Part shown: positions 1,130-60,626 of the stretch, one piece after another
How the letters are laid out: every line of letters starts with the position of its first letter
Numbering within the stretch: position 1 is the first letter of the stretch
Source of the DNA: Amphiscolops sp. MND2022
Lineage: Eukaryota
DNA length: 64,000 nt
Direction of reading: 5' to 3'
Assembly: GCA_964187785.1 (NCBI GenBank)
Contig: OZ076410.1
Location: forward strand, 64,170,001-64,234,000
Notes under the pieces: generated by a model
What the model was told of the DNA's origin: nothing
The model's database searches: none
The model's input: only the letters and a program-made list of their open reading frames with translations
Position numbers and translations under genes: made by a program

Positions 1130-1140
1130 CGCGAATGTAA

Positions 1141-6300: not shown

Positions 6301-6546
6301 TCCACTTCATGTGAACAGCAGCTGATAGCTTGGCGACGACGGTTTCCAAAAGAAAACTCGAGCGAAGATCAGAATCAAACTGAAGGTTTTCGAACGTTTG
6401 AACAAGTTTGCGGAGGAAAGCGCTGAAGCTTATGAATGATGAAGGACTTGATAAATGCGGTGCGGGAAATTTTTGCAGTTCGGAGATGAACGATTTTGCA
6501 ACATGTTTGGGATGACCAAAACGACGGCACAATTAGTCAACAGCGG

Positions 6547-7081
6547 TTTTTAATATTTCTGCTTTAGCAGGAATATTATTGAAATCTGGAAACGTGTACT
6601 TTTTTTCAGAACACTTTTTCGGACGATCTGAATAATTCAGATATTTTGTTCGGCAGTGAGTGTAAGCGAGCGAGCTGCCGAAGACAATTCAATTCTAGTG
6701 CGATGGAACGAGCGAGTGGTAATTATCCATTCGTATGCTGACGTCATTGAGATGAAGCGAGCGAATGTTCGTATTTGTGCTTTCGTTGTCCCGAGTTATT
6801 GAGATGAAGCGAATGAGTGTTAATTATTCGTTCGTTGAGAGCTTCGCCTGCATTCAAATGCGAATGCGAAACTTCGTCTACGCTCAGTAGTTATATTTTC
6901 TTTAGTCCGAGAAGAATTAAAGGCGGTGTAAACTTGTACAGTGATTAATTGTGCTCTAAGTAATGATTAAACAGGAAAGTATTGGTATTCCAGATGTGAT
7001 TCTTTTATTATTTGATTTTTTTGTTTCAAAAAAATAAAGATTAAAGCAGAAATAGTACTGAGCCCCGGAGGGGCCTATTTT
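6547..7081 (+). mobile_element. Helentron-associated non-autonomous element (HINE/DINE-1-like) inserted in BEL gag
   Basis: 13-bp subterminal inverted repeats TATTTCTGCTTTA (6554-6566) / TAAAGCAGAAATA (7042-7054); 5' stem-loop TATTTCTGCT-TT-AGCAGGAATA (6554-6575); 3' hairpin GCCCC-GGA-GGGGC (7062-7074); T-runs at both ends. Removing it restores the gag frame CNPLFYK-TAVD*LCRRFGHP. Confidence 0.75.
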
Positions 7082-10943: not shown

Positions 10944-11082
10944 AGTAGTAAGGGAAGGGGGGTTTAGACTCAATGAAGGATCCCAAAATTCTAAGATAGA
11001 ATTCTTAGACTCAATCATGGGTCCCAAAATTCTAAGATAGAATTCTTAGACTCAATCATGGATCCCTAATCTTAAAACATGC
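10944..11082 (+). repeat. Polinton left terminal inverted repeat (contains 41-bp tandem units)
   Basis: Reverse complement of 24881-25019 with about 6 mismatches; unit TTAGACTCAATCATGGATCCCAAAATTCTAAGATAGAATTC present ~2.6 times. Confidence 0.95.
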
Positions 11083-24880: not shown

Positions 24881-25019
24881 GCATGTATTAAGATTAGGGA
24901 TCCATGATTGAGTCTAAGATTTCTATCTTAGAATTTTGGGATCCATGATTGAGTCTAAGAATTCTATCTTAGAATTTTGGGATCCTTTTTTGAGTCTAAC
25001 CCCCCCTTCCCTTACTACT
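24881..25019 (-). repeat. Polinton right terminal inverted repeat
   Basis: GCATGTATTAAGATTAGGGATCC...CCCTTACTACT, reverse complement of 10944-11082. Confidence 0.95.
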
Positions 25020-27802: not shown

Positions 27803-28000
27803 ATGGGTCAAACTTTTGATGGCATCGACTTCTTGTGTGTGGAAGATCCTATCCAATTCTCCAAAAGTGCGGTGCAGAATTTGTTGCGCAACAGACGAGT
27901 CGCCATCATGGGTTGTAGTGTGCTGAGAGACCTCTACAAAGATATCATCTTGTTGCTGCAAGAGGAACGCTACCTAACGAAAACCGAGAATCGAAAAAAG
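27803..28000 (+). CDS. PCED1: PC-esterase domain protein (PCED1/FAM113-like), exon 1
   Basis: accATGg context; FSKSAVQNLLRNRRVAIMGCSVLRDLYKDIILLLQ matches the PCED1 N-terminal pattern ([28 protein letters not shown]); phase-0 donor AAG|GTATTA at 28000/28001. Confidence 0.85.
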
Positions 28001-30469
28001 GTATTATATTTCCATTCTTGAATTATTCAAGTTCGGTTATCTGGAAGTTTCACATTTTTGTCGCTTTAATAGAGGTAATGATATCGCGGCGTCCCATAGT
28101 CACGATCAAAAATCCCTGTCAACGTCCTTTTGTAAAATCATGTAAGATGCCTTTTGGCACTAAAATTTTTAGTCGGCGCTTTCTGTAAGAAAATCCAATT
28201 CGGGGTCGGAGAGAGTTTTACCTCGGATTGGAAGCTTAACAGACAAAAAGGTTGTTTTAGTGAGTTAGCCAATTCTCTTGAAGTTACTGTCAATTTCTCT
28301 CTCCGAATAATGCTCTTTCGGCTCACGGTTTCCAAAAGCTTCGAGTAATGGAATAAAATTACTTCTTTAACGAAAACAATAACACTAAGTAATTCCAATC
28401 AGTCAAACTAACTAATATTCATCAAGTACTATCTACAATTCTCAGTAAAAGGGTACAACAACAATCGAATCCACGATTCAGCCAGGTGCGTTTGGCGCAA
28501 TTCAATCTTGTTGAAGCTCCAACTTCAACCAAAATCACAAGTCCCGGACTTGTCCGTTAATCTCTTCTGCTGGCGACAACGTAATCTAGAAGTGTCTTTT
28601 GTCTCCGCAAGACTCAACCTTCTTCTAGTTCTCTTACTCGCTTGTCGAGAAACGCGAGTGTTAATTCGAACAAGTATCTTGCCTCCGCGAGACTCAACTT
28701 GATTCCAGCTTTCTAACTCGGTTCTGTCTATTCAAGTATATTCCAATTCCGCCTCAATTATATTTGTTCATCGCCCGCATTCTGGGTGGTTTCATCTTAA
28801 CTTTCTATCATACTTGACCTTTTTGTTACATACAGGGCGTCGGCGTCTTAAATTTGCATGAGTTTACCTTCATGTTTACTATTCCTTTTATGGCATGGCG
28901 GTCGCTTCTAATTATACTTCAGCTAAACATTCTTTGCCGCCAACGACAAATAGTTCAACAATAGTTGTACAAAGTTCACATATCTATAACAATTCAAGTC
29001 ACCCGAGATATTACTAATATCGAGACGATTGCTCAATGACCTTCAATTGCATGGTTTACATGTTCTCTACGGGTAAGGGGTACTTTTCTATCATTCTGAG
29101 CGCGGTGCATCGCGAATTGTTCCGCCTGATTGAAATGCATAAATTATCGCACAATGATGCTGTTACATGTTTAAGGTAAGTTCTGCCATACGTTCTGGGG
29201 TTACATCTAAAATGACCTTGAGGTCCATCGGTCACCTTGAAGTTGTTTGTAATCATCCAAAGTTGCTACATGCCGAATTATATCGTCCTAGGGTCAATGG
29301 TCTTCGAGCTACAAGTTATGCGTATGGTTTGTTTAGTTAAGGCGGATACCCCCTGCATGGGTTACAAATACGGTTTCCTTCACGTTATAAATCGACTACA
29401 TTGATCATTCCGGTTCGTTTGAGGTATTACAAGCCAAGGGCAAGTTTCATCTATCGGTCGGGCCCGCGCGTCCGGTCCCGCGTGCCTCAAACAAACATTA
29501 CTCCGCGCGTGGTGGACCGATTAATGTATCTTTCATGTATATAACTTAGGGTGACTAGGTGAACATCTTAGACAAGTTTCATGATCTTCGGGTCATCCGT
29601 TTGCTGTTTACATAACATTCGGTGTTTATTTACACAGGGTTCGTGCTCCCCCTACGCGCGTCGTAGGGTTCCGAAAATATGCGGGAACGGCTTAATATCC
29701 TATGGGCTATCAATTCCATATATTATTTGACATATTCCGTGCCTCGCCGACGAGTTCATAGGGGGTCGACCTAGGTCACTTCCGGTGTTAATAGCCCGGG
29801 GCTGGGGGGTTTCGTCTCGGTTCTTTTTTTTATTAAATCAGTAGCACCACAGCTCAAGTATACGTGTGCCAAATTTCAGGTCTCTACGATTTGTAGTCCT
29901 TGAGAAAAACCGTTTGGGGGGGGTTAAAGATTTGTGACGATTAGTTTTTCCTAGTGTATCTTAGAATATTTCCGACCAAAAGCGGGACTCAGTAAAATTC
30001 GCTCTCAGAGTTTCAACTCTAACTTAGCCGATTCGAACAATTTCATTGTCGACGTCACTCTTTAGCTTATAGTTTCGGCTAAGAAGTTTCGTTTGCCAAG
30101 TAAACATCAGGTTTGCCAAATGAGCTTTAATGAAATACGCTTTGGTCAGCCATTTCAGCTGCTATTACTATTTCGACGGTCTAAAAACATGATTATTATA
30201 TTTCTGTCGATCGTATGTACTCGCGCAAACGCTATGGGTTTTCGTGGACGCCAAAACTTAAATTTCCACACTTTCAATAGTAGTGGCTTTTTAAAGACCA
30301 GCGAACTGGCGATTTCCTATAAGCGTTTCTATCAGTTGTAACTTAGTAATATAACTGGCTCCCGTTACTTGACCTAGTGGTTACCACAAGTGGGACAGTC
30401 GCAGGGAGTCAGTTTACGTGGGTTCCAACCCTGTGCTTGACGAAATTTTTTAAGCTTCTAAAAATAGAG

Positions 30470-33964: not shown

Positions 33965-34405
33965 TGAACTGTTAAAGACTTGTTTGATGTTTGACTTTAA
34001 TTCTTTTATTGACCACATAAGAAGTTCTTACTAAGTCTTAACAGAATACCGTCTAGCTAGCTATTCTTCTTTTACTGAACTGAGTAGGATGATATCAAGC
34101 TGAGATCTCAGAATTCTTTCTCTTCTAAGATGAGAGTACTGTTTGATTACAACATTCAAGTTACTCTGAGTATATAGATTTAGCTAGTACACCAAACAAT
34201 AATGAGATTAAGTAGAATCCAAATCATTATAAGATGAAGTTAAAGGGATTACATTTTATAATGGAATCATTAGAAATGTTAGCGTCTCAATAATTGAAGT
34301 ATTAACTTCTAGATAGAATGGCATCTGTCATGCTATTATGTCACGAAGTTTAATTATACTTTTACAAATATTAGGATTCTCGATGTCATGCATCATGACG
34401 TCACA
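33965..34405 (-). repeat. 3' LTR of the Gypsy element
   Basis: TGAACTGTTAAAGACTTG...CATGACGTCACA; about 5 substitutions versus 51321-51761. Confidence 0.92.
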
Positions 34406-35178
34406 ATCGACCGGGTTTTTGAAAAAGTAAAATATATCAATATGTTTAGAATATGTTTTAAACTTGGGTTTTGTACTAAAGGTGTTTAATGTTTCATGTT
34501 ATATTAGAGTACCATACTTAAGGAGTGAGAACAACCTAAGACGGTTTGAACTTCTTAGTGATTTGGCGGTTTACATTGGTGCAATGTTTTTCAGTCAAAA
34601 AAAATTGATTGACAGTGTTTTTCAAGTTCTTGTTTGACAACCTTGTGGTAAGCTCCATCGGCTTTGTTTAAAAAGTATATGAGTTCTCCAAATGAGTATT
34701 CGTATGAAAACTTTTCGAGTTGAAGAACATTTCTAAAAGTTGTCAATGAGTTGTGAACAAACATTGGCAAGTAGTGAACAAAATGTGAAGAAGTCAAGAA
34801 TTGCAAAGGTTCATTTCATTTCCAAGAAAGTGAAGAATAGTCTTTTCGGAAAGTATTTCAAACTTCAAATTGTAGTTCAAAGTTCTAGAGAAAATAGTTG
34901 TTAAATAGGAAGAGATCTTGTTAAAAAGGAAAGAAAGATGAGAATATATTGAGTAATATAGGATGTGGTATAGGTAAATTTTTTTGTACTATGCATAAAG
35001 AGATGATAAGTTGCTAAATACCATCATATAAGGGGTATGATTACAAATCAATAAGAGTATAGCAAGCATCATATGATTAGGATGATTACAAATTAATAAG
35101 ATCAGAGCATCAACTAATTGATAAGAATACAATAATAGATTGAGGATTATACGATGCAAGCACTAAATAAATTTAAGG

Positions 35179-36406
35179 TTATACGGGAGGGATTAGACTA
35201 AGAACTAAACTAAAGGTTATACGAGTTATTAGAAGTTTATGAGTTATTGATAGAAAGTTTGAAGTTTGAAAAGACGTGTAGTGAGCCATGTCGATGATGA
35301 AATTTGTGATGATGGACGATGGCGGCAGGTGAAGAAGGGAAGAAAAAGACAATGTGACCACAGTTGGAGTTGAAGAAGTGAGGAAGAAGTGACGATAATG
35401 GGTGGTGGTTGACAATGTCAGAGAAGTGACGAGTGACGGTGTCCAAATGGACAGCGAAGACGAGAAGCAGCGACGGAAGTAAAGAAGTGGCGATGTGAAT
35501 AAGAGGTCGAGAAGCATGTAGTGAAAGATGGATGTTGAAATTGATGAAATCACTGTTTCCATTAGAGAATTTCAACAGCATCAAAGTATGAAGAAGTTGC
35601 AGAGAAGTGAAATAAGTGAGGTTGGTTTTATGTTAATTTTGGTTTATTTTGTTGGCCAAAAAGGATGTTTTGAAGGAGGGTGTACTTGATGGGTTTCTGG
35701 GTCATAACGTTGTAGTTGTTGAGTATACCCGAAATCGAGAAGGGTAGCGTTGAATGCGTCTATGGCGTCATCTAGTGCGGTTTGGAATTAGGTGTCCTTA
35801 GTTGTAGATGCCGAATTTAGGACAAAAACTGTTTCTGAAGTGGTCTCGCACACAGCGATTTTTGTGCCTGCAACATGAATGCGAAAATATTGTCCGAAAT
35901 TTGTCTGTTTTTTCTTGACTTGACATACATTGTAAAGAACTTTGAGGAAGGAACGTCGGGTATGAAGAGTTACATTGCCTTTGTTAACTTCCAGTGACAC
36001 TTTGTAAGCCATAGTGTGGAATATGACAGCTTTCAAACTGTGTACTTTGGAGGTTGTGGAATCAACAAGTTTTTTAATTTCAGAACTTTGTGGAGCCAAT
36101 AGAAGAAAAACGAGCGCTGAAATCTTGGTAGAAGTTTTTGGAGTTTGCAGAGGCTGAACGAAGTTCAGAAGGAGGAAGAAGAATAGAAGTTTCTAAAACA
36201 GAGGGAGTCTTAGGTTTGAAGACGAAAAGCAAGGAGTTTTTGTTAAATAATCTGGTGCTATAATATGTTTTTCGTGTTTGTATTGTTATATAATCTGGTG
36301 CTATAATATGTTTTTCATTTTTGTACTGTAGACGAAAAGAAATTTTGAGAAAGAGAGTGCTAGAAGATAGGTTAGGAAGTGAAATAGGTGAAACTTTTGG
36401 TGCCAT
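35179..36406 (-). pseudogene. Accessory ORF fragments 3' of env, unknown function
   Basis: ATG-initiated overlapping ORFs 36080..36406, 35788..36099 and 35237..35584/35179..35562 on the element strand with the same codon/composition bias. Confidence 0.4.
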
Positions 36407-36568
36407 GGAGAAAAGTGTTGTACCATTCAGAAGGTCAGAAAAAATTTTGGAAAGTAAAATAGGAATGTTACCTGTAGTTTGGGGTGAAAATGTTCAATAG
36501 AGAAAAGTGAACAAAAGTGTCCAAGATCGTAGGAAAATTAAAGAAATTTGTATTACCTGAGAGATGAT

Positions 36569-37824
36569 TTAATGAAGATTAAGAGTATTGAAAAGAGTGT
36601 TCATAGATTCAAGTGCAGATTGAATTGCTTGTGAGGATTGTGTTATACGTTGGGAATCTAGATCTAAAGTTTGAAAAAGTTGAGATGTCCTGTCGTAGCA
36701 ATGTATGAGATGATTGAGTGTGGTAAGTGGAAAATCTGACGGGTTTCGTTTATAAGGATCTAACATTTGAGTGAGATCTTTAAGAGTACGATTGTTCAAC
36801 ATGTTGGAAAGTTTTTCGCTAGTTTTGGAGGAGATTTCTGATTGGTATAACAGTGTTTTTGTTCAGTTTGAACTGTGTGATTTTGTTCAGTTTGAACCAT
36901 ATAAGTAATGGTTTTTGCGGCTATGAACAAAAGTTCATTATATGAATGAGATTGTTTTGAGAGAGCTGTATAATATGAGATGTCTTTATCATCTAAGGGC
37001 GATGAGACAAGGTGTTTGATGACTGTTGAAGGTTTGACAATCTGAGTAGGAATGTTGCAAGGTAACAAAAAGTCATCAAAATGGATGAGACATTCTTGAG
37101 GTACAATGAGAGGACGAGCTGTACCATTATGCGGGAGCAAACAAAAATCTTGTTTGATAGGGTCATAATTGCGAAGATATCCAGTTATCTTTGAGTGATC
37201 GATGGTATACAAATTTGTCATAGTGAGAGGTGAGGTGTATTTACAGTTCGCAAAATTGTAAATTTGAGGTTTATTGTGTTGAAGAAAGCGAGTATAGGTT
37301 AAAAGATGAGTGGTTTTTTTGTGCGGTAGAAAGGAAGGACGGATCTTTTTCATCAGTTTTGAGATCATATATGGATGGGCGGAGAAAATTAAATTGAAGA
37401 GAAAATATTTTGATGCCGTTGTCAAGCCAGTAGTGATATGGTGCCATAATTTTAGAAGCGATAGAAGTGAAGAAGTCTTGGTTTTTATCATAGAATTTGA
37501 AAGTGTAATCAGTTGGGTGCATATAGAGAGAAGGAGTTGTGATTTGAAAGAGAAGCGATTTGAAGGTGTTTTATTTTTTGAAGGAATATTTTGATGTTCC
37601 ATTTGATCGTGTTTATTTTTTGAAGGAATATTTTGATGTTCCATTTGGTCAGTAAGAGGATTGTCAGGCGTTTCTTTATGGTCGAGGAAGAGAACGGCAG
37701 AATCATTTGAAAGAGGTTTAGTAATAAAATCAGTAGTGTGCATTTCAAGTTTATTTTGAAGATCGATTTGTTCTTGAGTTATTTGTGAAGTCATGTTATG
37801 GAAATCTAATGGTGCTTGTGTCAT
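36569..37824 (-). pseudogene. Accessory ORF 3' of env (342 aa plus frameshifted 77-aa tail), unknown function
   Basis: Long ATG ORF 36796..37824 with an in-frame 42-bp duplication (HDQMEHQNIPSKNK); overlapping continuation 36569..36802. Confidence 0.6.
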
Positions 37825-38058
37825 ATTGTTATATTGGAGAGAGATTATAGGAGATGCAATATAGAAAACAAAACACTAACGAGTAGCTTTTTCAGCTGTT
37901 GTTGGAGTAGGAACTTTAATACGAAGAGTTATCGGGTGGTTATGATCTATTTCAATGGTCGGTTCAATTTTGGTTTGGTTTAGTTTTGACTTGGAAAGAC
38001 TAAGATTTTTAAGAGTAGAAATTTTGAACGAGAGTGACGAGTGTATAAGAGTGATCAG

Positions 38059-40807
38059 CTAGGTTAGAGGAGTGAAAAAGTCAGAATGATCAGATGTAAA
38101 AGATGGCGGAGGAAAGGAGTAATCGGTTTTAGAATATATGCGGACAGGAGTGTTCATCTCACAATCGACAAGTGATGTATTTAAAGGATAATCATTAGGA
38201 CTTGTGGTGACAGAAGAGTAACGTGGTAAGGATGATTGAGTATTAGATTTTGGTTGAACATTATGAGGTGTTTGATTAGAATATTGTTTTCGTTTTGGAA
38301 GGAATTTAAAACGTGTCATTTTGGAAATCCGATTTGATCGTTTTGTATAGAAAGGTGGTGGCGAAGTAATTCCAGTTGGATTTGAGGAAATACCTGTTGT
38401 ATCATTAGGATTGAAGGAGGATTCGTATAATGGGTTCTCAGTAATGGTTGACAGTTGATTTGAACTTTGTGAAGATGTTTTAGAACGAACACTTTTTAGG
38501 TCTTTTACCATGTCAGCCGTAAGAATATTCAAAAAACCATGTGCAAAAGAGTTAAGAACTGTAATATTTTGTTTAAGATTGTACTTGATCGAAACAGTTT
38601 TATAAAGTTTAACGATGAGTGTTAACATTGTCTGCAGAAAAAGATATGTAGAAAAGTAAATTCCACATTGTGTCAAAATGTAAAATGGGTATCCAAATAA
38701 AGCAATAAAAGCATCAGAGAACCAAGTAGGAGTGAAGAGTGGGGTAAGATTGATTAAACGATCATGAAGTCCAACTCGAAGTGTATTGTATGGATTATCA
38801 TGTGGGGAATTTGTATCATAATCAGGAATTTGTGTTTTAGATGAAATAAAAGAAAAACTAAGAGCTTTTCCCAAAAGTTGGAGAGTAGTATCAGAGTGTT
38901 TGGAAAATAAGATTCTGTTCCAAAATTGATTTAAATCAGCATTTGAGTATATACCAGCATTTTGAGCTGTAAATGTATTAGGTCGTATTTTAGTTTTAAT
39001 TTGAGGAGTAAACATAAGTGGTGGTTTTCGTTTAATAGGTTCAGGGCTAAGTATGTAAAAATCTTGATCATCAGAATCTGGGTCAAGTTCAATAATGTTT
39101 TTGGAATATTGTCGCATGTGATAGGAGTAGCATAATCATATGTTTGTCGTGTAATATGATCAACGTACATAATAGTGTCTTTAAAGTGAAGAGGAATTCG
39201 ATCGAAACAACGATCAGCAATGTATAATGGAGAGAGAAAGTGTGGGCAATCATATAGACAAGCAGTAGATCCTTCAACATAGAGGAAGTGACTACGATTT
39301 CCTGTTAAAAGGAACCCATCAACTTGAGGGTTTTGTACTGACATTGCAAGTATTGTAAGAAGTTGATTTCGTTCTAATTCGCATACTGTATGAAGAGTAT
39401 TCTGTTCTTGAACAGTCATAGAACGAAAGACATGATTAATAGTGTAATCAATTTTGGTATTTATATGAGCATCATAGTCTATGGTAGCAAAGTTATTAGA
39501 AACGTTCAATGCGGGGAATACATATTTGTTATTAGAGTGGTTTAATACAAGTTTGCCAGGAATATATTTATTGATTATAGAAGTAGGATTTGGTTGTCCT
39601 GTATGCTTATTAAATCCTTCGGTATAAGTGACAAAAAGGTCAGAGTATTGGGTAGAATATAAAGGTTCAGGTTTTCCACAAAAGGTATGTGCGTTAGGAA
39701 ACACTTCAAAACGTGAAAACTTGGATTATGTGGAGTTTCAGTATGTGGAGCACGGATGTAAGGATAGGAAGTACCTTTAATACCATTATGAGGAGTAGAT
39801 TTTTTGGGAATTGAAGAATGTACAAAAGAGTCTGTTTCAATCCAATAGCGATCTTCGATTTTAGTCATGCGTCCAATTAAATCTTGTAATGTAAAAATAA
39901 GACAGAAATCATCACTAAACCATAAAAGTGTGAAAGGAGTTTTTGTAGTGGGTTTACAGAAACCATCTGCAAAGTAACATGGTCGAGTGTGACCATCAAT
40001 TATCATAACGTTTTGTGTATCATCATAAGTTAGTTCTATTTCAGATATAGCAAGACGCCAACTAACTAAGTTGACTTCAAATTGGTGATGAGCAGGACAA
40101 TTATGGTAGGGGTTGCGAAGTGGGTCATATATCCAAGTTTTGTCAGCAGGCATATAAGTAAACGTACCTGTATACATTTTGTTAAGTTGGTAGACAGTAA
40201 AAAGGGTTTGAAATCGTTCTTGTTGTTCTTGAAAATAGTGGTCTTCTAAAAGTGTAAAAGTTTTGTTTTAATTTAAGTTGTTTAATATTTTATTATCAGT
40301 TCCAATAAGGTGTCTAATAAGATTTTTACATTCAAGAGGATCAAGTGTAATAGGAAGTGGCATCGTATTATGATTCCAATCAGTTCTATCAACACGTCGA
40401 TATTTAACATTGCCTTGGAAGCAAACATTTCGTTCTTTCTTTGCATAGGCGTCACATTTGAAAGCGCGAATACGTTTGGCTTTTGCTCCTACAAAAACTC
40501 GGGCTTGAATATTTGCATGTTGTATGTTAGAAGGAGCTTCAGTACATTGTTCAACATTAAGAAGGTTAAATTGGCGAAGGTTATGTTGTTTTTCACAGTC
40601 ATAATGAGAGACCATAAGATTTGTTATATTTGGATCATCTGATGGGAGATAACGGTCTTCATCAGTTGGTGTAATAGGAATAGAGAATGTGAAATATGGA
40701 TTTAGGTAAAAGAAGATTATATGAGTTATGAAAAGTGAAAGATTTGTGTTAAAAGGATGTGGTATAATTGATACCAGAAAAAGGGTTGTAGAAAACATAT
40801 TTGCCAT
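38059..40807 (-). pseudogene. env: Envelope-like class III fusion glycoprotein (chuvirus G / herpes gB-like), in four fragments
   Basis: Hydrophobic N-terminal leader; SHYDCEKQHNLRQFNLLNVEQC, AFKC, LDPLECKNL, CYFADGFC, VCELERNQLLTILAMSVQNP, CFDRIPL..KD.IMYVD.ITRQTY.YATPITC; C-terminal TM FIALFGYPFYILTQCGIYFSTYLFLQTMLTLIV plus cytoplasmic tail. Confidence 0.78.
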
Positions 40808-41912
40808 AGGCTAAAGTATGTAGTTCTGGATCACGATTAAAATCAACTAAAATTACTTCAAATGGAGCAGGAGTTGTTTTGTGTTTTATCTTTGCAACGT
40901 GAAATATACGATGAGGGTTGAGACCTTGAAATTTGACTCTAACTTCAAACTTTAATTCTAAATTAGGAGTGTGGAGACGTTTAAGTTCGGTTTCTTTTCT
41001 TTTATTGGAAAGAGAATTGTTTGTAGTAATAAATCGTTCTGCAAGGATAGGAAATCGAGGATCGTTTTGAGGATTGTATATAGTGATTCCGTCTACACGT
41101 ATAGGATAATCTGCAAAGTTGGAAGTGGGTGGTCTTGATTGATACTATGTAAAATGTTCAGGGATTCTTACGTGAGGAGCAACAGGTGTAGGTACTAAAA
41201 CTTCAGAGAAGAGATTGCCAGATAAATATGCAGTTTGAACGTCAGAAGAAAGTAATGAGGCTGTGTCTAGTCCGGAGGTAAAGTAAGATTGTGGGGCAAA
41301 GTCTGAAGAATATACAGTATCAGAGGATATAGGTTGAGCGTGTTGTCTAAGAAGACGTAGTGCAGAGTTGCTTGATAATGCTGAAAAATTGAGTGTCGAT
41401 GAATCAGTAGCACTGAGACGTCGATTTGGAAGAGGTCTAAGATTGTATCTATGTTGAGGTATAATATCAGAACTAGAAGTGTCTGTTTGTGGTTGATACT
41501 CTGAGGCAGATTCTAACAAGTTAGTAAGAGAAGTAGAAGGACGTCGTAGTGGTTTTAAAGGAGGATAGAGTTGAGACTGACTAGAAGATTCAGATGGTAA
41601 GTGTAATGTAGGTAAGGGAGTATATTCAATATCAGGTATTTGTACTTTATCTAATTTAGATGGAAGATTGGGTGAAACACGAGCAGTTTTGATGGCGGTT
41701 GGTTGTTTATAATTTTTAAGAAGTGCTACAGTATTAGGATGTGGTATGCGAAATATAGGTGTATGAATTATTGGTTGAGATCTAGAACTAGGGGTATATG
41801 GTATTTCAGGAATAGGTGGTCTACTAATATGAGTAGATGTTATGTGAGGAGATGGTGTAGGTGAAGTAGTTATGATGTGAGATCTTGGTCGTTTAGAAGG
41901 AGTTACAGGAGT
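40749..41912 (-). pseudogene. Extra ORF between pol and env (P/S/T-rich N-half, globular C-terminal domain), one internal stop
   Basis: One frame is open from 41912 to the stop at 41145-47 and continues YQSRPPTSNFADYPIRVDGITIYNP...FEVRVKFQG...FEVILVDF to TAA at 40749-51. Confidence 0.55.
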
Positions 41913-42088
41913 TCATTACTAGTTGTAGTAGTATTTGAAACTGAGGATTAAGATGGAGAAGATATACTAGGAGCAGAAGGAGATGTTCCAGATGAAGAAT
42001 CCAGGTTGGTAGTCCGGTTCGGTTAAACAAGATTTCGATTAATTTATGTGACTAGTTGAAGCAATGGCTGAAAAAGCGAATGAATGGT

Positions 42089-45000
42089 TCAAAGTTTGGA
42101 TGGCGGTGTGAAAATACGATAATCCATTTTTGGTTGTTGTCTTAAATTGTAATGAGTTTTGGTATCTCTATTATTTGTAATAGATGATGGTGATTGGTTT
42201 TGAGATGGGTGACGGGTTCTGTCAAAGGAGTTATTAGTACCAGGAGCTTGGAGAATTGGTTGAGAAGGTATATTAGTAGTTGAAGGAAGATTAGTATTTG
42301 ATGGAGTTCGTGTAGAACGGTCATTTGGTGACAAGGTTTGGTCATCATCTGGTAAAGATGTATCATCAGAAAGGGATTCATCGGAATTAAAAGGTGAGGA
42401 GTCGCTATTAGTATATTGAATGGGTTTTGGAATGTTATAGGTAATTGAATCAGAATATCGCATGAAATTACGGAGGTGCGGACATAAGAGTGATTCTTTT
42501 GGATAATAAGGTATTAAATGATTTCTATGTACGTGGGATGTAGAACCACCTTGTGCAAGAAGTTCATATGTAACATCGGCAATTCTGTCAAGAACTTTGT
42601 ATGGACCAATCTGAAGAGGTTTAAGTTTGTCAGAGAAGTGAACATGTGGAAAATGACGTTTGAGTACAAAAGTGCCAAAAGGAAGTGGTTTTCCTTCATG
42701 ATAAGTTTTAGTTATATAAGCGTGAGAATTTATTTTTTTAAGAGTATAAAAGTATACTGTAGAATAAATTTGTAACATTGCAGTTTCTACAGCGATAAAC
42801 GATTGTGGAATCGGTTTTGAAAGAGTTTTATAAAAGAATGGATTTAAATCCGTTTTGTCATAGTGTGAATGTTCTGGAAGTTGTGAACAATATTGTGAGA
42901 TACAAGTTGAACTGTTACGATTAAAGTTTAGATCAAATGTAAGTGGGATTCTGGGTCTTGTGTGAAACACTATTTCAAATGGAGAAACATTGAGTTCTGA
43001 AAGAGGTTGTGAATTGTGTGCATAAGCATACATGTGGACTTAAAAAGCCCAGTCTTGAGGGGTGTTATGAAGGAACATACGAAGGTGTGTACCAAGATTT
43101 CTATTTTGTACTTCAACAAGGCCATTTGTCCAAGGAGAATAGGCTGTTCTGGGAGAGTGCCTACTTTCCATGGGTGTAGATAGGTGGGCCATGTCTTTAT
43201 TGATATATTCGGAGCCACGATCAGTGACAAGGTAAATAGGTGGGCCATATTTGGTAATCCAGTGGTGTAATAAAGTTTTAACTGCAGTTTTGGCATTGTT
43301 CGATTTGATTGGGACAGTAACAACAAAGTGGCTGAAAGCGTCAACTATGACGTGAATGGATGATTTGTGTTGTGAAGGAGGATTTATGGGTCCTTTTGTA
43401 TCCATTGAAATTCTGTAATTGAAGGAAGGAGCATGTTCCGAAAACGGTTGTGTAGGAGCAGTCTGTATTTTCATATTGAAATGTTTGTTTCTTTGACATT
43501 CTAGACAATCATGTATGAAAATAGAGAGCCATTTTTCGAGATAAGGAATGTGATAATATTGAGAAAAAGTATTATAAGTTCTTTTGATACCTGTATGAGA
43601 ATGGTCATGAAGTTTGGTAAATACAGTTTGAAACATTCTAAAAGGGAGACAAATTCTAATAGCACTATGTAGTAATTTTGGAATTGAAATAGGGTGTGTT
43701 TCAGGAGGAAGTGGATTTGTTATATAAAGGCTTATAAGGTTGGTAGTGGTGTCAATGAAAAGTTGTGCAAACCTTTTGTAATATTCATGTAAGAAAAGAT
43801 TACCAGTAATTAGAGGGGTAAGAAATACAGGTTTTTCATTTCGAGATATCCATGAATATACAGTCCGAAGAACTGGGTCTTGAGATTGTTGAACTTGGAG
43901 TGTTTTAAAGTCTAATGAGTAGTCGTCAGGAAGGAAGAAACCTTGAAAATACGTGCTGTTTTTAAAGAAGGAAGGATCGTAAATGGTACTACTTGGGGAG
44001 AGTGTGTCATAGGAGTTGAATTTGTTTGTACATCTATAGCAGAAGTAGATTCTGATATTGACGATGGTGTTGTGTTGAGTTTTGATTTAGTTATTGTGGA
44101 AAAGGATTCTTCTCGTTCGTGTAACGTGTCATTGGGGGAAAAAGAAGAAGTATTTTTTGGAATTCTAGTGTAAATGTGTTCATCATCATCACTTGTAACA
44201 TCGGTATCGTTGAGTAGGAGAGATTGTTGATGAAGGGACTTATTATCTTTTTTTGATAGGTGCTTTGAATTTGGCTTGAAAAGGAGTAACAGCTTTAAAG
44301 GAAAGTGAGTTTAAAGGTTTAACTATAATATCGTTTCCTTTGTCATTAATACGTAATGAAAATTGGTCTGTTCCATAATTCCGAGAATTGGTTGAGAATC
44401 GTGTTTTTGATGAGGTAAAACTTCTTCATGTGTTATTAAGTAATGTACGGGTTTAAGTGTGTTAGTTTGTAATATTGTAAAGTCAATATGAGGTGGAAGG
44501 TGTTTATGTTTGAGTTGATTTATTCGAAGTTCTTCTGTGAATGACCTACTAAGTAAATCAGCAACGGAAAAGTTTTTTTCCAGGAGTATGTATAATTGTA
44601 AGTTTTGAAAAGTTTGTGAGTTGCATTTGTGCTCTATAAAAACGTGGACTGAGGGATCCCTTTTTTGTAAAACAATGTAAAAGAGGTTTATGGTCAGTGA
44701 ATATATGGATAGGATGGGGTGATCCGATTATAATAAATTCGTAAATTTGAAGAGCGTGTACTATGCCAAGAAGTTCACGTTCAAGAGTAGGGAGTTTTTG
44801 TTCTTGTGGGTTCAATATACGTGAATTGTAAGAGACAACTTTCATTTGATTTTGTTCATTCAATTGAAAAAGGACAGCACCTAATCCAATGAGTGAAGCG
44901 TCAACAGTAATGAAAAACGGATGTTTTGTATAAGAATTGTAAGTGCTGTGGCAGAGGTAAGAGATGTTTTTAATGTTTGAAATAAGCCTTCATGTTCTTC

Positions 45001-47081
45001 AGTCCATTTCCAGGGAGTATTCTCATGTAATAAATCATAAAATGCTTTGAGATTAATGTGAAGTTTTTCAATGAACTTTGTGCAAAAGTTGAGTGCGCCT
45101 ATGAAACTCATTAGGGCAACTTTTCCAGTGGGAGAAGGAATTTTGTGTATTGCTGCAATTTTGGAATGTATGGGTTTGGTAGTGTTGTAACCTATTTCAT
45201 GTCCTAGAAACTTGATTTTAAGAAGCATGAAAAAGGATTTTTCAGGAGCTAGTTTAAGATTATGTTTTGTGCTAATAAGATGTAATTGTTCAATAAGTTG
45301 AAACATATGTTCTTTAGAGTTCGATAAAAGTAAAATATCATCGATATAAACAAGAGCAAAACCTTGTTCAATAAGTGTTCTTAAGAGTGTTGACATTTGT
45401 TTAGTAAAGAATTTCGGGAGTCCTTTGAGACCGTAAAATCCTCGTATGAAAGCAAAGAGTTTGTCGCCAGAAGAGAAACTTGTAAGTTGAATAGTTTCTT
45501 CGTCTAGAGGGGTATGTGCATAGGCGTAGATGAGGTCTATTGCACATTTGTATTTCTTATTTGCGCGTGCTAGTTGTGGAGCAAGAGGTTCAATACGCCA
45601 GGATTCGTCTGATTGTTCTGTATTGGATTTAAAGTGTCGTGCATCTAATACACATTTGATGAAACCGCCTTTGGGTATGATAATGAGAGAATTTAAATAA
45701 GTGGTACCATAAACTGGTTTATCCTGAGGAGAAGAACCAATTTGTTTTATAATATTATGTTTTTCTAATTCTTTAAGGAGAGTATTGAGTTTATCACGAT
45801 AGTGAATTAATACTTCAGAAGGACGTTGTGTAATTAATTGAGCATTTGGTTTGAGTCGGATACGGAGAGGAGTTGCAATCTTGCCAACGTCATTTTTATG
45901 GGTAGCATAGCAGGTCTTATATTTGAGTAACAAATTACAAAGTGTAACATATTCAGTATCTGTAAGGTCAGAGAATTGGAAGTTGAATTTGTTGATAACT
46001 TTGAGATTTTTTGGTGAACATGGTAGGGAAGGGAATACTCTAGGTTGTGAGGAATGAGAAGTAGGTTGTACATTATAAAGAGACGGTGTACGTGGTAATG
46101 GATTAAGATTAGTCATATAGACTTGATGTAGTGAAAAGGGTATTGAAGAAGTTGGTTGTTGTTCTGGAGGTAATGACTAGTTTGTTGGTGGTATAGGTTC
46201 TGTAAGTTCCGGATGGTACGTATAGGTGACATTGTGTATAAGCGTGTTTATGTCATTTACTCGGTAATAATTAAGTTTTTCATTGGTTATTGGGATTTCA
46301 ATATATCCAATATGTCCTATAAGTAATGTTGCAATGTGATTTGTAGAATTTTGAATAATTGTAGCACAAGTGTCTGGTTTGTCGTCTGTAAGATCTTCAA
46401 TGAAGTTGAAAGTTGAACGAAATTTTGAGGAATAGTAGGTATGTGGAATGGTGGGGAAAACTGTTTGTGGGGTGTTGTCGAGAAATGAAGGTTGTAGTAA
46501 TTGTTTATAGGAAAATGTGCAATTTTTGAAGAATTTGGTTTTAGACGAATTTGTGTTTTGGAAATAATTCTGTAGAGATAAGAAAAATATGTATAATCTT
46601 TGGATAATAGTGAAGTAAATGTAGCATAATTAGGATGTACTCTTGAGTGGTGTTTAAATTGTAATGTAAAATCTTGAATGTTTAAATTTTGTATATTTTC
46701 TTCAAAGAAGGGTCTTCCAAGGATATTGTATTTTATATCAGCTACTGCAAACGGTACTGTAAATTGACGGGAGTCATCTTCTATGGTAGTATTTAAAGTA
46801 ATGGTGACGTAGTGTAAAATAGGAACTTCTGTTTGATTTGCGACTGTCAGTGTTTTTGACGAATTAGGTGGGTTATTTTGTTTACTTTCAAGAAGTTTTG
46901 CAATAGTAATATAGGTAGGATGGTTTAATACAGAAATTGAAGTGCCACTATCCAAAAGGAAAGAAATTTCGAGTCTTGAAGGATAGTCACGTTGGTTTTG
47001 ATTGGGAGAAGCATGTGTATATAAAGAGTAGAACCAGCTTGTAGGAGTTAATGCATTTGCCATTTCTGTTGGGTGATACAT
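42089..47081 (-). pseudogene. pol: Gypsy pol: protease, RT, RNase H, integrase (multiple frameshifts/stops)
   Basis: FLLDSGTSIS (protease); YIDDILL, KFLGHEI (RT); ERELLGIV...IFTDHKPL (RNase H); H..GI...C.ECQ, ISMDTKGP, TDRGSEY, NGLVEVQNR (integrase); LQIGPYKV (GPY/F). Confidence 0.95.
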
Positions 47082-47216
47082 GTGTATTTCAAAGTTAATT
47101 GGATCTGTAGAAGTTTGTGGTTGAATATTGTTAATTTTGTTTCGTGTACGAGAATTTGAACGAGAACGAGAATATCGAGAATCTCTAGGTCTGGACGGCG
47201 GTCTGTAAGAAGAAGT

Positions 47217-50157
47217 TTATCTTTGAAAGGTATTATCTCTAGAGTAAGATCGAGACTTATATAGGGGACGTGAATCACGTCTGTAAGGTGATCTGTAAGA
47301 AGATCTGTATGGTGAACGATATGAACAAGAATCTCTTTGACAGTCGTCATACCGAGACCGGGTATAATGTGGAGGAGTAGTAGTTCGATCATAATTGTAG
47401 CGAGTTCTAGAAGTAGATCGTTGTCGATATTGAGGATTATTGGATTTTTGATAATCATGTCGAGATGTACTTCGACTATGATATCGAGTGGGATAGTCAT
47501 TTGGTCTTGTATCATATCTTGGTGTTTTATCATTGGAGGAAGAACGAAAATATTGTACAAAAGATTTTTGAGGAGACTTTGATTGTGCATAAGTATCACG
47601 TTTATCTTCATCACCTCGTTGTTTTTTGAAACAGGTTGAGATAGAGTGATTTGTTCTATGGCAAAAGGAGCGATACTTTTTGTAAGCGGGTTTTGTTTTA
47701 TTATTTGGATCTCGTGGTTGTGTAAACATTATTTGATCAGATTGTTGTGAGTCTAATGTCTGAGTTTGTAGTTGTTTTGTAATATTATTTGACTTCGAGG
47801 GTTAGATCATGTGTGCGTATTTTGTCATTTGCTATGTCTTCAGCATCTACAAGTTTTACAAGTGTATGGAAAGGAATTGAAGGTTCTAAAACAGTAGAAG
47901 TATGTTTAACTTGTCTTTCGTTCGCAAAATCCTTAAGGTTTTTGGGAAGTCCTTTGGCAAAGATTTCATTGCATTTAAGGTTGATGGTTGATGCATTTTC
48001 ATTACACCAGCCCTTTTCAACGAGTTGTTGGACTTTAAGTGCAAAATAACGAACAGTTTCATTATCCTTTTTTGTTGAACTAAGAGCTTCAACTTGTGCA
48101 TAATAAGCGTTTTTCTGTGATTAAAATTGTTTTTTAAAAGCTTGTGCAAAAGCGTTCCAATCTTGTTGATGAGTATCGTTTAAGCGAATGTAGCAACTAA
48201 GAGCAGTTCCAGTGAGTGAACAATGTACAAAAGCCATTCGGCGAGCATGCCAAAATTTATATTCATTAACAGTGGTAGGTTGTAATCCTAACGAAAATGT
48301 AACACGGGCTTCAATGTGTTGTAAGTATTCTTCTGGTGTGTAATTATGGTCTAAACCATCAAAAGGTTTAATAGGTTCTGAAATAGATGTAGCAGAATTA
48401 ATGTATGTTGGAGTACTTGGAGTAGATAGATGTAGAGTGGTTGGAGGTATGGTATGAGTAGTAGAAGGATTAAAAGAAGTGGGAGGTATATTGAGAGCGT
48501 TGGTTTGAGGTTGGGTATGAATTGGTTGAATAGGCGGAATTGTTTGTGTCGTAGTAGAAGGAATATGAGGATGAAAATTTGTAGCAGACGATTGTATATT
48601 TGTATTAGTGGACTGAATCTTATTTGAAAAGGATTGTGAATGGAGATTGGTACTAGTAAGATTGTATGAAAGTGGGTTGTTTTGAATAAGTGGTAAAGGA
48701 GGTCTTGATAAATTGCGAGAAGTAGTAACATTAATTACAGGATTAGTATGTGAAGTATTAATAGTTAATATAGGAGAAGTATTGGATGATACGGATGGTT
48801 GAGCAGGAAGGTATTGTAGTGTTTGATGAGATTGTATGGGTGTAGTATTTGTGTGAAACTGAGTTTCATGTAAGGGGTGTTGTCTGATGGGAAAGGTATT
48901 GGAAGAACCCTGTTGAGGTGAATTATGAGAAGTACTATGGGTAGAATCATCAGATGGAGGAGGCGGTGGATCATAATTTCGTTGTGGTGTGTTTGAGGTG
49001 GTTGTGTGTCAATAGTATTTGTTACGGATAATGTAGAAGGATTTTCTTGGTTGAAAATATGATCACCATGTTCTGTAATGTTTCGGGTAGGTATCTGAAT
49101 AGCATTAGAATCTGTGGTAATAGAAGTATTGGGTGGAAATGTGAGAATGTCTTGTACGGTTTCAGCTGTATCATGTGTTAATTGTGATGGTTGTTGTGGA
49201 GTAGTTGGTTGACGTTGAATTACAAGCTCATCATCAGTAGTGTTGTCTTGAAATGAATTTATATTAGGTCTATTGGCAGAAATTTCAGATAGTACATTTT
49301 CATGATCATTAGTGGTATTTTGAAGTAAATTCATAATAGGTCTATTATCGGAAGTTTCGGATTGTTCGATAAGGAAATCAGAATTGAGTATTATAGAGTC
49401 AATATTAGATATGGGAAATGTTGTGAAATTTTTATAAAAAGGGTGTTTGAAATCATTTCGGATAATAAATGGTAGGAGTTCAGTATCAGTAAGTACCTGG
49501 GGAAAATTAACGTATGCATTTTGATCTCTTTGTTCCCATAATAGTTGATAAATATATCTGAAGATTTTTAAGAGAAAAAGAGAGAAGATTTTGATTTGTG
49601 GTATGGTATCATCATCTAGTATAATCTTTTGGAAAAATCTGTGCTGACAGTTTGTGACTTGTAAAAGATCTTGTTGAAAAATGAGAACTATTATGGCGTA
49701 TAATTTTTGAGTCTATATCTAGTACATCGAAATAGATTGCTTTTTCTTTTAAACTTTTGAGAAGAGAAGGTCGATAATGTGGTGTATCTAAGTTTTCATT
49801 ATGTTCAATAAGTTTGTCTATATGGGTAGTGAAAACATCTTGGATCGATAGTTTTAAATTTTGAGGATGAATAGTTCTGTAAAATGTTCCAGATTTAACA
49901 CCTTGTACTGAATTGAAAATGACTTGAAAAGGTTGTTGCGAAGGTGCAGTGTCGAAGGTTTTATACCTGATGTAATAAAGGTATGCGTCTAATTGTTCTC
50001 GAAGTAATAGTATTGTATGTATTGAGTGTGGTTCAGTTTCAAATGAAAGTGGGTTTGTGTATTGAAAAATTAGATTGTTTAAGAAAGGTATTACATCTTG
50101 AGTTATTGAACGGGCAGATCTTTGTTGTGGAGATAATGTAAATTGAATGGGAAGCAT
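47217..50157 (-). pseudogene. gag: Gypsy gag with long N-terminal extension, capsid domain and CCHC-like knuckle
   Basis: IKPFDGLDHNYTPEEYLQHIEARV...LTGTALS (capsid-like, ~48200-48370); degenerate knuckle SFCHRTNHSISTC and an R/S/Y-rich tail; upstream fragments 48351-50157. Confidence 0.8.
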
Positions 50158-51033
50158 TATGTAATGGTAGGGAGTTTTATATCAGTCACAGTAGAAATTG
50201 TTTAATAAATTAAACAAATACTGGGTGAGAATATATTGTGTAGTGAAATGGATAGGATATGGACGTATTAGGTCTACAAATGTGATTTGTAAAAAAACAG
50301 TAATTATAGTTAAAAAGGTGAGTAAGAATTAATTAGATGTTAGTGAAAGTAGAGTACAAATTGTATTATAAATTACAAGAAGGCCAAAAAGAGGAAGTAC
50401 TATAGTATGTATCATACGAAAGTGAGAGATTGATAGTAGTTGGAAAGAATGAGGAATGTGGACTTAAAGTATTAGAATCTTGGTATGAAAGGGACCAAAA
50501 ATTTGTCAAAGAAAAGTGCAATACCAGCAAGTATACCAAAGGAGAACCAAAGTAAAAATAAAAAGCGTACTAAAGTGTCGACTGAAATCATTAACAAAAG
50601 AGAATTTATGTATTTTATTGTGTTAAAAGTTGAGTTTGTATTAGATAGTAATAGTATTAAAGGTAGGGTAGGTTTTGTAGTATAGCTTTTGTATTATAGT
50701 CTTGATATTATTTGTATTATAGTTTTGATATTATCAGAAGTGAAGTTCGTATTATTGATCCGCGGCAGTGTTTAAGAAAGTTAAAATGTATATATTAAGA
50801 TATTATTGAAGGAAATGGTATGAAAGAGGTGAAAGGAGAGAAAATATGTTATGTTTGTGTGCCAACTTTATTTAAGTTCATCCAAGCGGCTAGGACCAAA
50901 GTATTTGACTAGCAGGAATCGCCGGATAGCACGATTTGAAAACCAACACGAATCGCACGTCTGCGGTTGGAACAAAAAGAAAAGAAAAAGCAACACGAAT
51001 TCACCTTGTGGTGGTTGAAACGAAGAAATTTCA

Positions 51034-51166
51034 ACTGATAGGAATTACGTTATTACGTAGTCAGAACCATAAAATATCTACTGACAGGAATTACGTACAA
51101 TGACGTAGTCAGAACCAAAGAGTTTTTACTGACAAGAATTACGTTGGAGGACGCAGTCAGAACCAT
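51034..51166. repeat. Three tandem 46-48-bp hairpin-forming units in the Gypsy 5' leader
   Basis: ACTGA(T/C)A(G/A)GAATTACGT-variable-ACG(T/C)AGTCAGAACCA at 51034, 51080 and 51128. Confidence 0.8.
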
Positions 51167-51320
51167 ATGTGAATTAACATTGATATACAAGAGAAAGAGG
51201 AGGCGACACGGTGTGTCCAACAAAGAAATATCGTATGAAAAAGTTGAGAAAATGTGTACAAGAGGAGTGAATTTGAGGTACTAGGGGAAGAGAAAAGAGA
51301 ATTTTCGTGGTCGCACTAAT

Positions 51321-51761
51321 TGAGCTGTTAAAGACTTGTTTGATGTTTGACTTTATTTCTTTTATTGACCACATAAGAAGTTCTTACTAAGTCTTAACAG
51401 AATACCGTCTAGCTAGCTATTCTTCTTTTACTGAACTGAGTAGGATGATATCAAGCTGAGATCTCAGAATTCTTTCTCTTCTAAGATGAGAGTACTGTTT
51501 GATTACAACATTCAAGTTACTCTGAGTATATAGATTTAGCTAGTACACCAATCAATAATGAGATTAAGTAGAATCCAAATCATTATAAGATGAAGTTAAA
51601 GGGATTACATTTTATAATGGAATCATTCGAAATGTTAGCGTCTCAATAATTGAAGTATTAACTTCTAGATAGAATGGCATCTGTCATGCTATTATGTCAC
51701 GAAGTTTAATTATACTTTTACAAATATTAGGATTCTTGATGTCATGCATCATGACGTCACA
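51321..51761 (-). repeat. 5' LTR of the Gypsy element
   Basis: TGAGCTGTTAAAGACTTG...CATGACGTCACA, direct repeat of 33965-34405. Confidence 0.92.
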
Positions 51762-51861
51762 ATACCTGTCAATGCTTTTCAACAAGCTAAATATTTATTT
51801 TTGTTAGCTTTCATGATATTTTTTTCAAAAGTCATTCATACAACTGGCACATTCAATTCAG

Positions 51862-52375
51862 GCACCTTCAGTTTGCAACGACAAGGTTGTAAGAAAAAGC
51901 ACCATCTGTAAAGGAACGAATGACCCACATTACCACGAAGTGAGAGAATTCTGCCAACTTGATTTTTTTATCCGATTCTATTATGTTACCCGTGCTTACA
52001 ATGATACTGTGAATACGTGTATTCGCGACATGCAGCAAGAGTTCAAACCAGATATTGTGATGTTCAATTCTACAGTATGGGATGTCGCGCGATATGAAGT
52101 ACCCTTTCAGCTACCGATTTTTGAACAAAACGTGAACAGGGCGTGTTCTGAATTGAGAAATTCTGTGGTAAATTGTACGTTCATATGGCTCCATCAGCCC
52201 CCGGTTAATGCCAATTGTAGTCGAGGTGCAGATGGTGCTACTAGAGAGCTCGTAAGAGACAACGTGGTAGACTGGATACTGAAAGCTGTCAATCGAAGTG
52301 AGGAACTCTGCAAGGCGAATGACTTTTATTCAATAGATCTGTACAATCTAATGAAAGATAGAACAAGCTGGCTAG
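51862..52375 (+). CDS. PCED1: PCED1-like gene, exon 2
   Basis: Acceptor ATTCAATTCAG|GCA in phase 0 with exon 1; HYHEVREF...FIRFYYVTRAY...PDIVMFNSTVWDVARY matches the PCED1 core; donor CTAG|GTGAGT (phase 1). Confidence 0.88.
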
Positions 52376-52922
52376 GTGAGTTGTTCTTGAGATGTTATTT
52401 TGGGCGATGTCCATGTGAACTATGGTACTGAAAAACATTTACTAAATAAAGTTTCATTTTTCAATGGATGGGATTAATTGTACTTCTGTTTTAATTATTT
52501 CTGCATAAGCTGTAGAAACCGTAAATGTGATCTTATTTGTGGACCCGCTTTGTTCGCCAATTTTGATTGGCTACTCGAAATCTTAGGCTAATTGGTTTAA
52601 TTCTCGTAGCAGCGGGAAGCGTTTTATTGAGATGAAACGAACGAGTGTTATTTATTCGTACGGTGAGATATTCGCTTGCATTCAAAAGGCTTAGTTATAT
52701 TCTTTTGTTCAAGGAACAAAGCTTATCGCCCGAGGAGAATCGAAGGCTGTATAAAATGGTAGTGATTAATTGTGCACTATATATTGAATCCACAGGTGTA
52801 TGGTTATTGATACATTGTATGTCTTTATTATTGAACTTCGAAGTCAATGATTTTTGTAGCCTGCAGCAGAAATATTTCTGTGCCCCACAAGAGCTTATTT
52901 TATTTGAATGAAAATTCAAAAG

Positions 52923-60439: not shown

Positions 60440-60626
60440 CAAATTCTGATGAAGTGTTTTCGATGAAGGAAGTGCTAAAAATATTGTGCTAAAAAGAATT
60501 TCAAATTAAATTTCAAAACAAGGCAATAATAGCTATTATTGCCTTGTTTTGAAATTTAATTTGAAATTCGTTTTAGCACAAAATTTTTTGGCACTTCCTT
60601 CATTGAAAACACTTCATCAGAATTTG
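60440..60626. repeat. Near-perfect 187-bp spacerless palindrome centred on AGCT (60531-60534)
   Basis: CAAATTCTGATGAAGTGTTTTC...AAGGCAATAAT-AGCT-ATTATTGCCTT...GAAAACACTTCATCAGAATTTG. Confidence 0.92.

Follow-up and report, generated by a model that had tools for sequence, protein, structure and literature searches.

The 64,000-nucleotide (nt) window considered here (contig OZ076410.1 of Amphiscolops sp. MND2022, positions 64,170,001 to 64,234,000) contains on its minus strand a retroelement enclosed by two long terminal repeats (LTRs) of 443 nt at 33965–34407 and 51321–51763, which are 98.9% identical (5 mismatches) and whose positions give an element length of 17.8 kb. The coding (minus) strand is G-poor across about 34–51 kb, and both the LTR alignment and the composition bear out the original prediction, made from the letters alone, of a 17.8-kb element on a G-poor strand. 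That prediction also placed complex-retrovirus-like accessory genes between env and the 3' LTR. The element encodes, in this order, gag-pol, a gene designated X, env and two genes designated A and B (Table 1), and X, A and B are almost certainly real genes. The accessory genes of the prediction stand in part: A and B are under selection, but only two of the units listed could be substantiated, their bounds differ, and X, which precedes env and lies outside the range then considered, was missed.

Sister copies were collected by a DNA search of the genome with positions 34406–38058 (40 of 4651 candidates scored, 119 matches, 30 loci taken), and further lineages were sampled with homologues of A as bait. 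Ratios of nonsynonymous to synonymous substitution (dN/dS) were obtained from Nei–Gojobori counts with our own script and Jukes–Cantor correction, the pairs compared not being independent; the reading frames of the window were tested against 14 distant sisters. At the sister loci two ORFs (open reading frames) recur downstream of env, A (about 470 amino acids, aa) and B (151–161 aa). A was found in all lineages sampled, its identity falling to 35% at the lowest. The alignment of sisters that had been proposed as a check on the prediction finds A and B open and under purifying selection, with dN/dS of 0.08–0.18 for A in 9/9 between-subfamily pairs and 0.06–0.25 for B in seven of the nine, the other two being saturated. 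Values among five close, decayed pairs range from 0.27 to 0.99, and those of spacers from 0.38 to 1.3. For X, dN/dS is 0.11 against the window and 0.03–0.05 among young copies, the same as for env. Accessory ORFs under purifying selection, a trait of complex retroviruses, are thus found in A, B and X alike. The possibility that host sequence or another element was captured here, or that the ORFs arose by chance on a G-poor strand, holds for two short frames discussed below (108 aa and 71 codons) and perhaps for 35179–35581, but for A, B and X this explanation is refuted by codon-level selection and by the same gene order in four lineages, and as an account of the whole region it is highly improbable.

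The order pol-X-env-A-last ORF is found in 6/6 copies in each of the four lineages. For six copies of a first family (family 1), the two halves were read separately. LTRs 99–100% identical and one long gag-pol frame are found in five of them, and in all six A and B are both open. The core of A occurs at 99–100% identity and without a stop in 150/150 scored candidates (of 7137), and judged from these sequences the family is large and partly young. A second family retains X-env-A-B in 6/6 copies, and two old copies of a third family also carry X, env, A and B. Two distant lineages have X-env-A in 6/6 copies each, followed by final ORFs unrelated to B, of 298–305 aa in one (5/6 copies) and 158 aa in the other (4/6); two copies of one distant lineage measure 18.8 kb. 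Between lineages, identity is 56–87% for integrase (IN), 54–84% for env, 32–66% for X and 35–69% for A, and these four rank the lineages in nearly the same order, which fits joint inheritance; for the last ORFs a match (62%) exists only between the two near families. One distant-lineage copy (L130/L131) has inserted into a tandem satellite whose unit measures about 220 bp. The window copy itself (33965–51763) combines LTRs differing by only 1.1% with genes that are many times broken, about 7% from close sisters and under weak selection; because of this small LTR divergence relative to the many gene breaks, its last move was likely recent, made with help in trans when the genome was already defective.

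Table 1. Features of the element in the window (all on the minus strand).
Feature	Position	Strand	Remarks
5' LTR	from 51321	-	TG...CA ends; 98.9% identical to 3' LTR
Primer-binding-site-like motif	51309..51318	-	2 nt past 5' LTR; also in a distant lineage
gag-pol	42090..50157	-	order gag-protease-reverse transcriptase-RNase H-integrase; broken here, single frame in young sisters
Gene X	40749..42004	-	Met-free ORF, likely CUG-initiated; Ser/Thr/Pro-rich N-part, conserved C-terminal domain; broken here
env	38059..40807	-	Monjiviricetes-type fusion glycoprotein (PF24664); PPxY in tail; broken here
Acceptor-like AG motif upstream of A	37874..37881	-	AG in 20/21 copies
Gene A	36569..37824	-	disrupted here by frameshifts and the loss of about 160 nt; sister proteins have 430-495 aa
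In-frame duplication, 42-bp period	37570..37650	-	in the variable N-terminus of A
Splice-donor-like motif just past A stop	36552..36561	-	GT in 21/21; 22/24 copies over four lineages
Splice-acceptor-like motif upstream of B	36189..36200	-	AG in 21/21; 19/24 copies
Gene B	35644..36099	-	last gene, specific to the lineage; disrupted here, 151-161 aa in sisters
C-rich region, two overlapping open frames	35179..35581	-	possible fast-evolving ORF
3' LTR	from 33965	-	match to 5' LTR

Gene X contains 405–446 codons (419–430 in family-1 copies) and lacks any Met codon in 6/6 family-1 copies and in 6/6 copies of one distant lineage. ATG is rare in X in any frame (three in 1185 nt, none in 1277 nt), against 13–26 per kb in env and A. 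Conservation of X begins at a Leu-Asp pair in four lineages, and this Leu is encoded by CTG, preceded by a purine at -3 and followed by G at +4, in 30/31 aligned rows (31 of the 43 loci tried). A second pattern places CTG at the start of X in 35/43 loci, the same start is found in 6/6 copies of each distant lineage, and elsewhere CTG makes up 0–5% of Leu codons. Translation of X is, on these codon patterns, likely initiated at CUG. Such a start, in an ORF poor in ATG, would also let ribosomes scan on to the next AUG, that of env, which overlaps the end of X; this step is less sure than the CUG start itself because the support from shuffled sequences is modest and short ORFs lie upstream. Annotation based on ATG would miss or truncate X, so similar genes may have been overlooked in other pol-env gaps.

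The protein encoded by X is 36% Ser/Thr/Pro and ends in a conserved C-terminal domain of about 130 aa. It carries [LI]YPxL in 4/4 lineages, PSAP in 3/4 and YNLR in 4/4, and the env tails carry PPxY in 3/3; neither PSAP nor YPxL is present in the one family-1 Gag and the one distant Gag checked. PSAP, YPxL and PPxY we take to be late domains recruiting the endosomal sorting complex required for transport, and by this analogy the chance that X serves in budding, or as an adaptor resembling a matrix protein, is about even. It has also to be considered that X is made as a fusion, by splicing to an upstream exon or by frameshifting out of pol, and uses YNLR to act on chromatin or integration, with A and B in structural or packaging roles. 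YNLR, which we assume to resemble the chromatin-binding motif of foamy Gag, is kept in all four X proteins and recurs near the end of integrase in two of the three lineages checked, and an AG about 35 nt past the pol stop is kept in 31/31 aligned rows. However, the gap between pol and X is variable in both length and frame and is interrupted by in-frame stops, and amino-acid conservation starts precisely at the CTG codon in four lineages, which leaves the fusion unlikely.

In the window, A is represented by ATG-initiated ORFs at 36796–37824 (342 aa) and 36569–36802 (77 aa). The 77-aa piece has a dN/dS of 0.09 and the main in-frame part of the 342-aa ORF 0.12 (0.31 for its N-part), whereas a middle stretch of the latter is off-frame, with a ratio of 2.23 in that frame; the predicted unit 36569–37824 is hence a real coding unit, but it is a single broken gene whose longest ORF is partly out of frame. 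The in-frame 42-bp duplication reported at about 37569–37650 was found again (Table 1); the translated sequences of sisters L004 and L005 contain it and those of L007 and L027 do not, so that it represents a subfamily-specific change in the variable N-terminus. A proteins share a conserved core and a basic K-K/R-K/R-Y cluster in 4/4 lineages, and a membrane segment was found in none of X, A and B. In the structure model of A (mean predicted local distance difference test score, pLDDT, 43.8) the only part reaching 60–79 is the C-terminal end, a helical hairpin and a 50-residue helix; the model has no structural match in PDB, and a Tudor/SH3-like core suspected by eye is not supported by it. By analogy, A may tentatively be regarded as a Rev/CERV- or Tas-like nuclear regulator of element RNA, because a splicing element also needs its unspliced RNA to leave the nucleus, as happens in Cer1 via CERV. 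P0259, a full-length homologue of A, reaches only 44–50% identity with the nearest sequences of this genome; it may belong to a different host, and the range would then be wider.

The ATG ORFs of the B region lie at 36080–36406 (108 aa) and 35788–36012 (74 aa). From the predicted unit 35788–36406 the 74-aa piece survives as part of B (dN/dS 0.22), while the 108-aa frame is spacer: with a ratio of 0.88 and no third-position excess it was rejected as a gene. Two distant lineages have unrelated ORFs in place of B; a weak match between B and the last ORF of a distant lineage (27 residues, E 0.004) was not accepted as homology. Among young copies the synonymous sites of B are saturated while dS in A is about 0.1, and in L070 and L072 compared with L062, otherwise near-identical young copies, B has diverged much further than have A, env or X, which indicates recent exchange of the last cassette. 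An exchangeable last gene would fit host conflict. It could be argued that A and/or B suppress host silencing or antagonise another defence, and are expressed from internal promoters as is env in some Oikopleura Tor elements. The replacement of the last gene between lineages and the exchange of B among young copies are as expected of such genes, no donor was found in the element leader, and Tor env is described as having internal promoters (PMC4402516). On the other hand, the amino acids of B are strongly conserved within its lineage group, the conservation of A across all lineages fits a core step better, and no likeness of A or B to a known suppressor was found. Silencing suppression, one of the roles originally suggested, has no specific support. 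This explanation is improbable as a whole; a host-defence role of B is compatible with the reading favoured below.

The remaining frames after env fare differently. The frame at 34591–34806 (71 codons), put forward as a possible unit, lacks an ATG start both in the window and in all 22 copies compared and was rejected as a gene, with a dN/dS of 0.65 and no codon-position bias. The unit predicted at 35179–35584 contains ATG ORFs at 35237–35581 and 35179–35562, both of at least 100 aa, a pair matched in 0 of 1000 shuffles; the upstream ATG is kept in 21/22 copies, and the frame runs for at least 74 codons in 13/21. These 114-aa and 127-aa frames have dN/dS of 0.74 and 1.19 and no third-position excess, so the unit keeps its unusual length and its ATG but not the mark of coding selection, and it is doubtful that a fast-evolving gene is present.

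Splice-like signals flank the spacer between A and the last gene. A donor-like motif lies no more than 15 nt after the A stop in 22/24 copies from four lineages, against a background of 5–8%, and TTTTAG precedes the last ORF in 19/24 copies; in family 1, GT and AG are kept in 21/21 copies where the mean spacer match is 0.72. The spacer between A and the last gene probably contains an intron, as far as motif conservation can indicate. As the donor-like motif lies past the A stop, splicing would not fuse A and B; it would shorten the spacer or serve a message for B. Since no donor-like motif was seen in the leader of 4/4 copies, internal promoters may be used, as reported for env of Oikopleura Tor elements (PMC4402516). 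A look-up of RNA runs for this stretch listed none, which speaks neither for nor against expression.

Searches for relatives of the three proteins returned nothing meaningful in Pfam for X, A or B and nothing under E 0.1 among PDB sequences. The ESM Atlas gave no usable match for A and one lead of 0.75 for X, within chance, and the model of B (pLDDT 58.7) had no viral match at E 0.001, its best hit (Z 5.2) falling on a helix; such blank fold searches do not establish new folds. Protein searches yielded 283 matches for A, 531 for B and 598 for the X domain, and the 120 listed from each set are ENA proteins without names or Pfam domains. A deep search for homologues of A was followed through the best 150 of 577 matches, and remote relatives may lie beyond these. 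Matched back to this genome, P0023, P0089 and P0254 agree at 99–100% and P0377 at 99%. X, A and the three last-slot proteins constitute families without a recognised relative outside this group of elements. As the searches yielded neither a protein family nor a solved relative nor a confident fold, the roles are assigned from motifs and position.

The element itself is of the env-bearing Ty3/gypsy type, as judged from its LTR ends, the order of pol and the best match in a pairwise comparison of reverse transcriptase (RT). TG...CA ends with a 4-bp target duplication were read in four of five young copies, the fifth being printed off register, and the bases flanking the window copy agree at three of the four positions. 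These ends exclude a Troyka element, the hallmark of which is CG...CG ends and a 3-bp duplication in the part of the literature covered (PMC12440569). In the window gag-pol has decayed into six pieces and contains 12 in-frame stops. By Pfam, RT, RNase H (RH) and IN follow one another in gypsy order; the protease, for which Pfam gave no match, was placed by eye from its active-site motif. The RT-RH of a young sister matches Ty3 best among PDB sequences (E 8e-39, 136 bits), followed by caulimovirus-like (97 bits) and foamy (71 bits) sequences; a foamy-type pol was rejected, the RT being closer to Ty3 and the single RH of gypsy type. No second RH domain was found at E 0.1, about 320 aa between RH and IN being without assignment. 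The env of the window copy lies in three pieces that match the Monjiviricetes fusion protein in Pfam, PF24664 scores above its cut-off in 2/2 sister envs (81 and 96 bits), and a PDB sequence search with env gave no match bearing on class F versus class gB. In Gag (window 48700–50157; L061 2112–4050) about 640 aa precede a capsid-like match; they include an N-terminal part of about 250 aa that is not repetitive, and a long Ser/Thr/Pro-rich part. The leader (window 51006–51147) holds three tandem repeats of 46–48 nt each, and upstream of the 3' LTR (34406–34430, and young copies) there is no clear polypurine tract, a fixed A-run and a short GC motif being found there.

From the genes, their order, the selection on them, the CTG codon and the motifs, all of which are observed, we infer a route of expression and functions by which this 17.8-kb element, although broken in the window copy, likely works in the manner of a complex retrovirus. 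X, started at CUG, would link particles to the host budding machinery, A would regulate element RNA in the nucleus, and B would be a swappable host-interaction gene made from spliced RNA. Several points weigh against this. The donor-like motif is missing in two of six copies of one lineage, and the 5' leader is without such a motif in 4/4 copies checked, contrary to classic leader splicing. The start of X is CTT in one old copy and CTA in another, and 7/43 loci were not located by pattern; the depletion of out-of-frame ATG in X is modest compared with shuffles (P 0.03–0.13), and in several lineages short upstream ORFs before or inside X would hinder scanning to env. The motifs are short and putative, and PSAP, missing in one lineage, is chance-prone in Pro/Ser-rich sequence. 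Finally, neither a sequence nor a structural homologue backs any function, and the models of A and B are weak. A bolder hypothesis, at present rather unlikely, is that an old and still-expanding Ty3/gypsy clade independently evolved a complex-retrovirus genome, with a CUG-started matrix-like budding protein beside a glycoprotein of negative-strand-virus type, a dedicated nuclear regulator of RNA that represents a new protein family, and an exchangeable last position, expressed by splicing, for a host-conflict gene; under that hypothesis X was possibly captured together with the glycoprotein.

The surroundings of the element include two likely exons of one host gene on the plus strand, at 27803–28021 and about 51863–52431; sites resembling a splice donor and a splice acceptor lie near 28000 and 51862, respectively, so that the element flanked by them would likely sit antisense within a host-gene intron of about 24 kb. 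Pfam gave no match for these exons, which we presume to resemble PC-esterases. Elsewhere in the window, a tandem array with a 1914-bp period (1006–6753) comprises at least three copies that are 98–99% identical, and a near-perfect palindrome with 56-nt arms (60440–60626) resembles a miniature inverted-repeat transposable element. Inverted repeats of 139 nt at 10944–11082 and 24881–25019, 96% complementary, 13.8 kb apart and with 41-nt internal repeats, are possible ends of a large DNA transposon.

Among known systems, the bdelloid LTR elements also carry third ORFs between pol and the 3' LTR, in the account covered here such as env, esterase or exonuclease (PMC5408684). They share with this element extra ORFs before the 3' LTR, whereas here three unrecognised genes come on top of env. 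Additional ORFs between pol and the 3' LTR have reportedly been seen in plant LTR elements as well. A retroviral protein begun at CUG is said to exist in the glyco-Gag of murine leukaemia virus; that protein extends Gag in frame, while X is a separate CUG-started gene before env. With mononegavirus-type matrix proteins X shares motifs that we take to be late domains and a place just before the glycoprotein gene, and with matrix-type proteins in general late-domain motifs in a disordered N-part followed by a compact C-terminal domain, but no sequence match to a mononegavirus-type matrix protein was found. Retroviruses, lokiretrovirus and Odin possess a dual RNase H, consisting of a tether and a new RH, as set out in the sections drawn upon (PMC9040795). 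Of such a dual RNase H there is no sign in this element, the roughly 320 aa between RH and IN aside. For A, the model is the accessory protein CERV of Cer1 in C. elegans, described in the part of the report used here as made from spliced RNA and needed for nuclear export of the genomic RNA (PMC10309623); A differs in gene position and in being one of three extra genes, and is likened to CERV by role only.

Env-carrying Ty3/gypsy elements (errantiviruses in the wide sense) share with this element the LTRs, the gag-pol-env order, a Ty3-type RT-RH, a viral-type fusion protein and many near-identical copies. In the portions available, a survey of errantiviruses sought three-ORF elements, mostly below 10 kb and with pol-env gaps of up to 500–1000 nt, and its main text contains no occurrence of 'accessory', 'splic', 'CUG' or 'ORF4' (PMC13524379). 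While the elements of that survey, to the extent it is covered here, have three ORFs, those described here measure 17.8–18.8 kb with three more conserved genes. In the literature covered, with Repbase and most subscription literature outside its scope, no description of the X-env-A-last-gene set was found. Elements of gypsy type bearing env are widespread, and for most of them budding and cell-to-cell spread are described as unknown in the same portions of the survey (PMC13524379); the three extra genes are named candidates for these steps. The closest layout is that of the foamy-like teleost endogenous retroviruses (ERVs) AcERV and DrFV-2, which, in the parts of their description used here, exceed 17 kb, have a gag of about 3.3 kb and carry ORFs under purifying selection, described without a known function, between pol and env and after env, the last ORFs differing between lineages as they do here (PMC5210030). 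AcERV and DrFV-2 are grouped there with foamy retroviruses, whereas the pol described here is nearer to Ty3, with one gypsy-type RNase H, and the ORFs are alike by layout only. If the gypsy placement is confirmed by an RT tree, the likeness to the fish foamy-like ERVs would represent convergence on a complex genome outside the Retroviridae.

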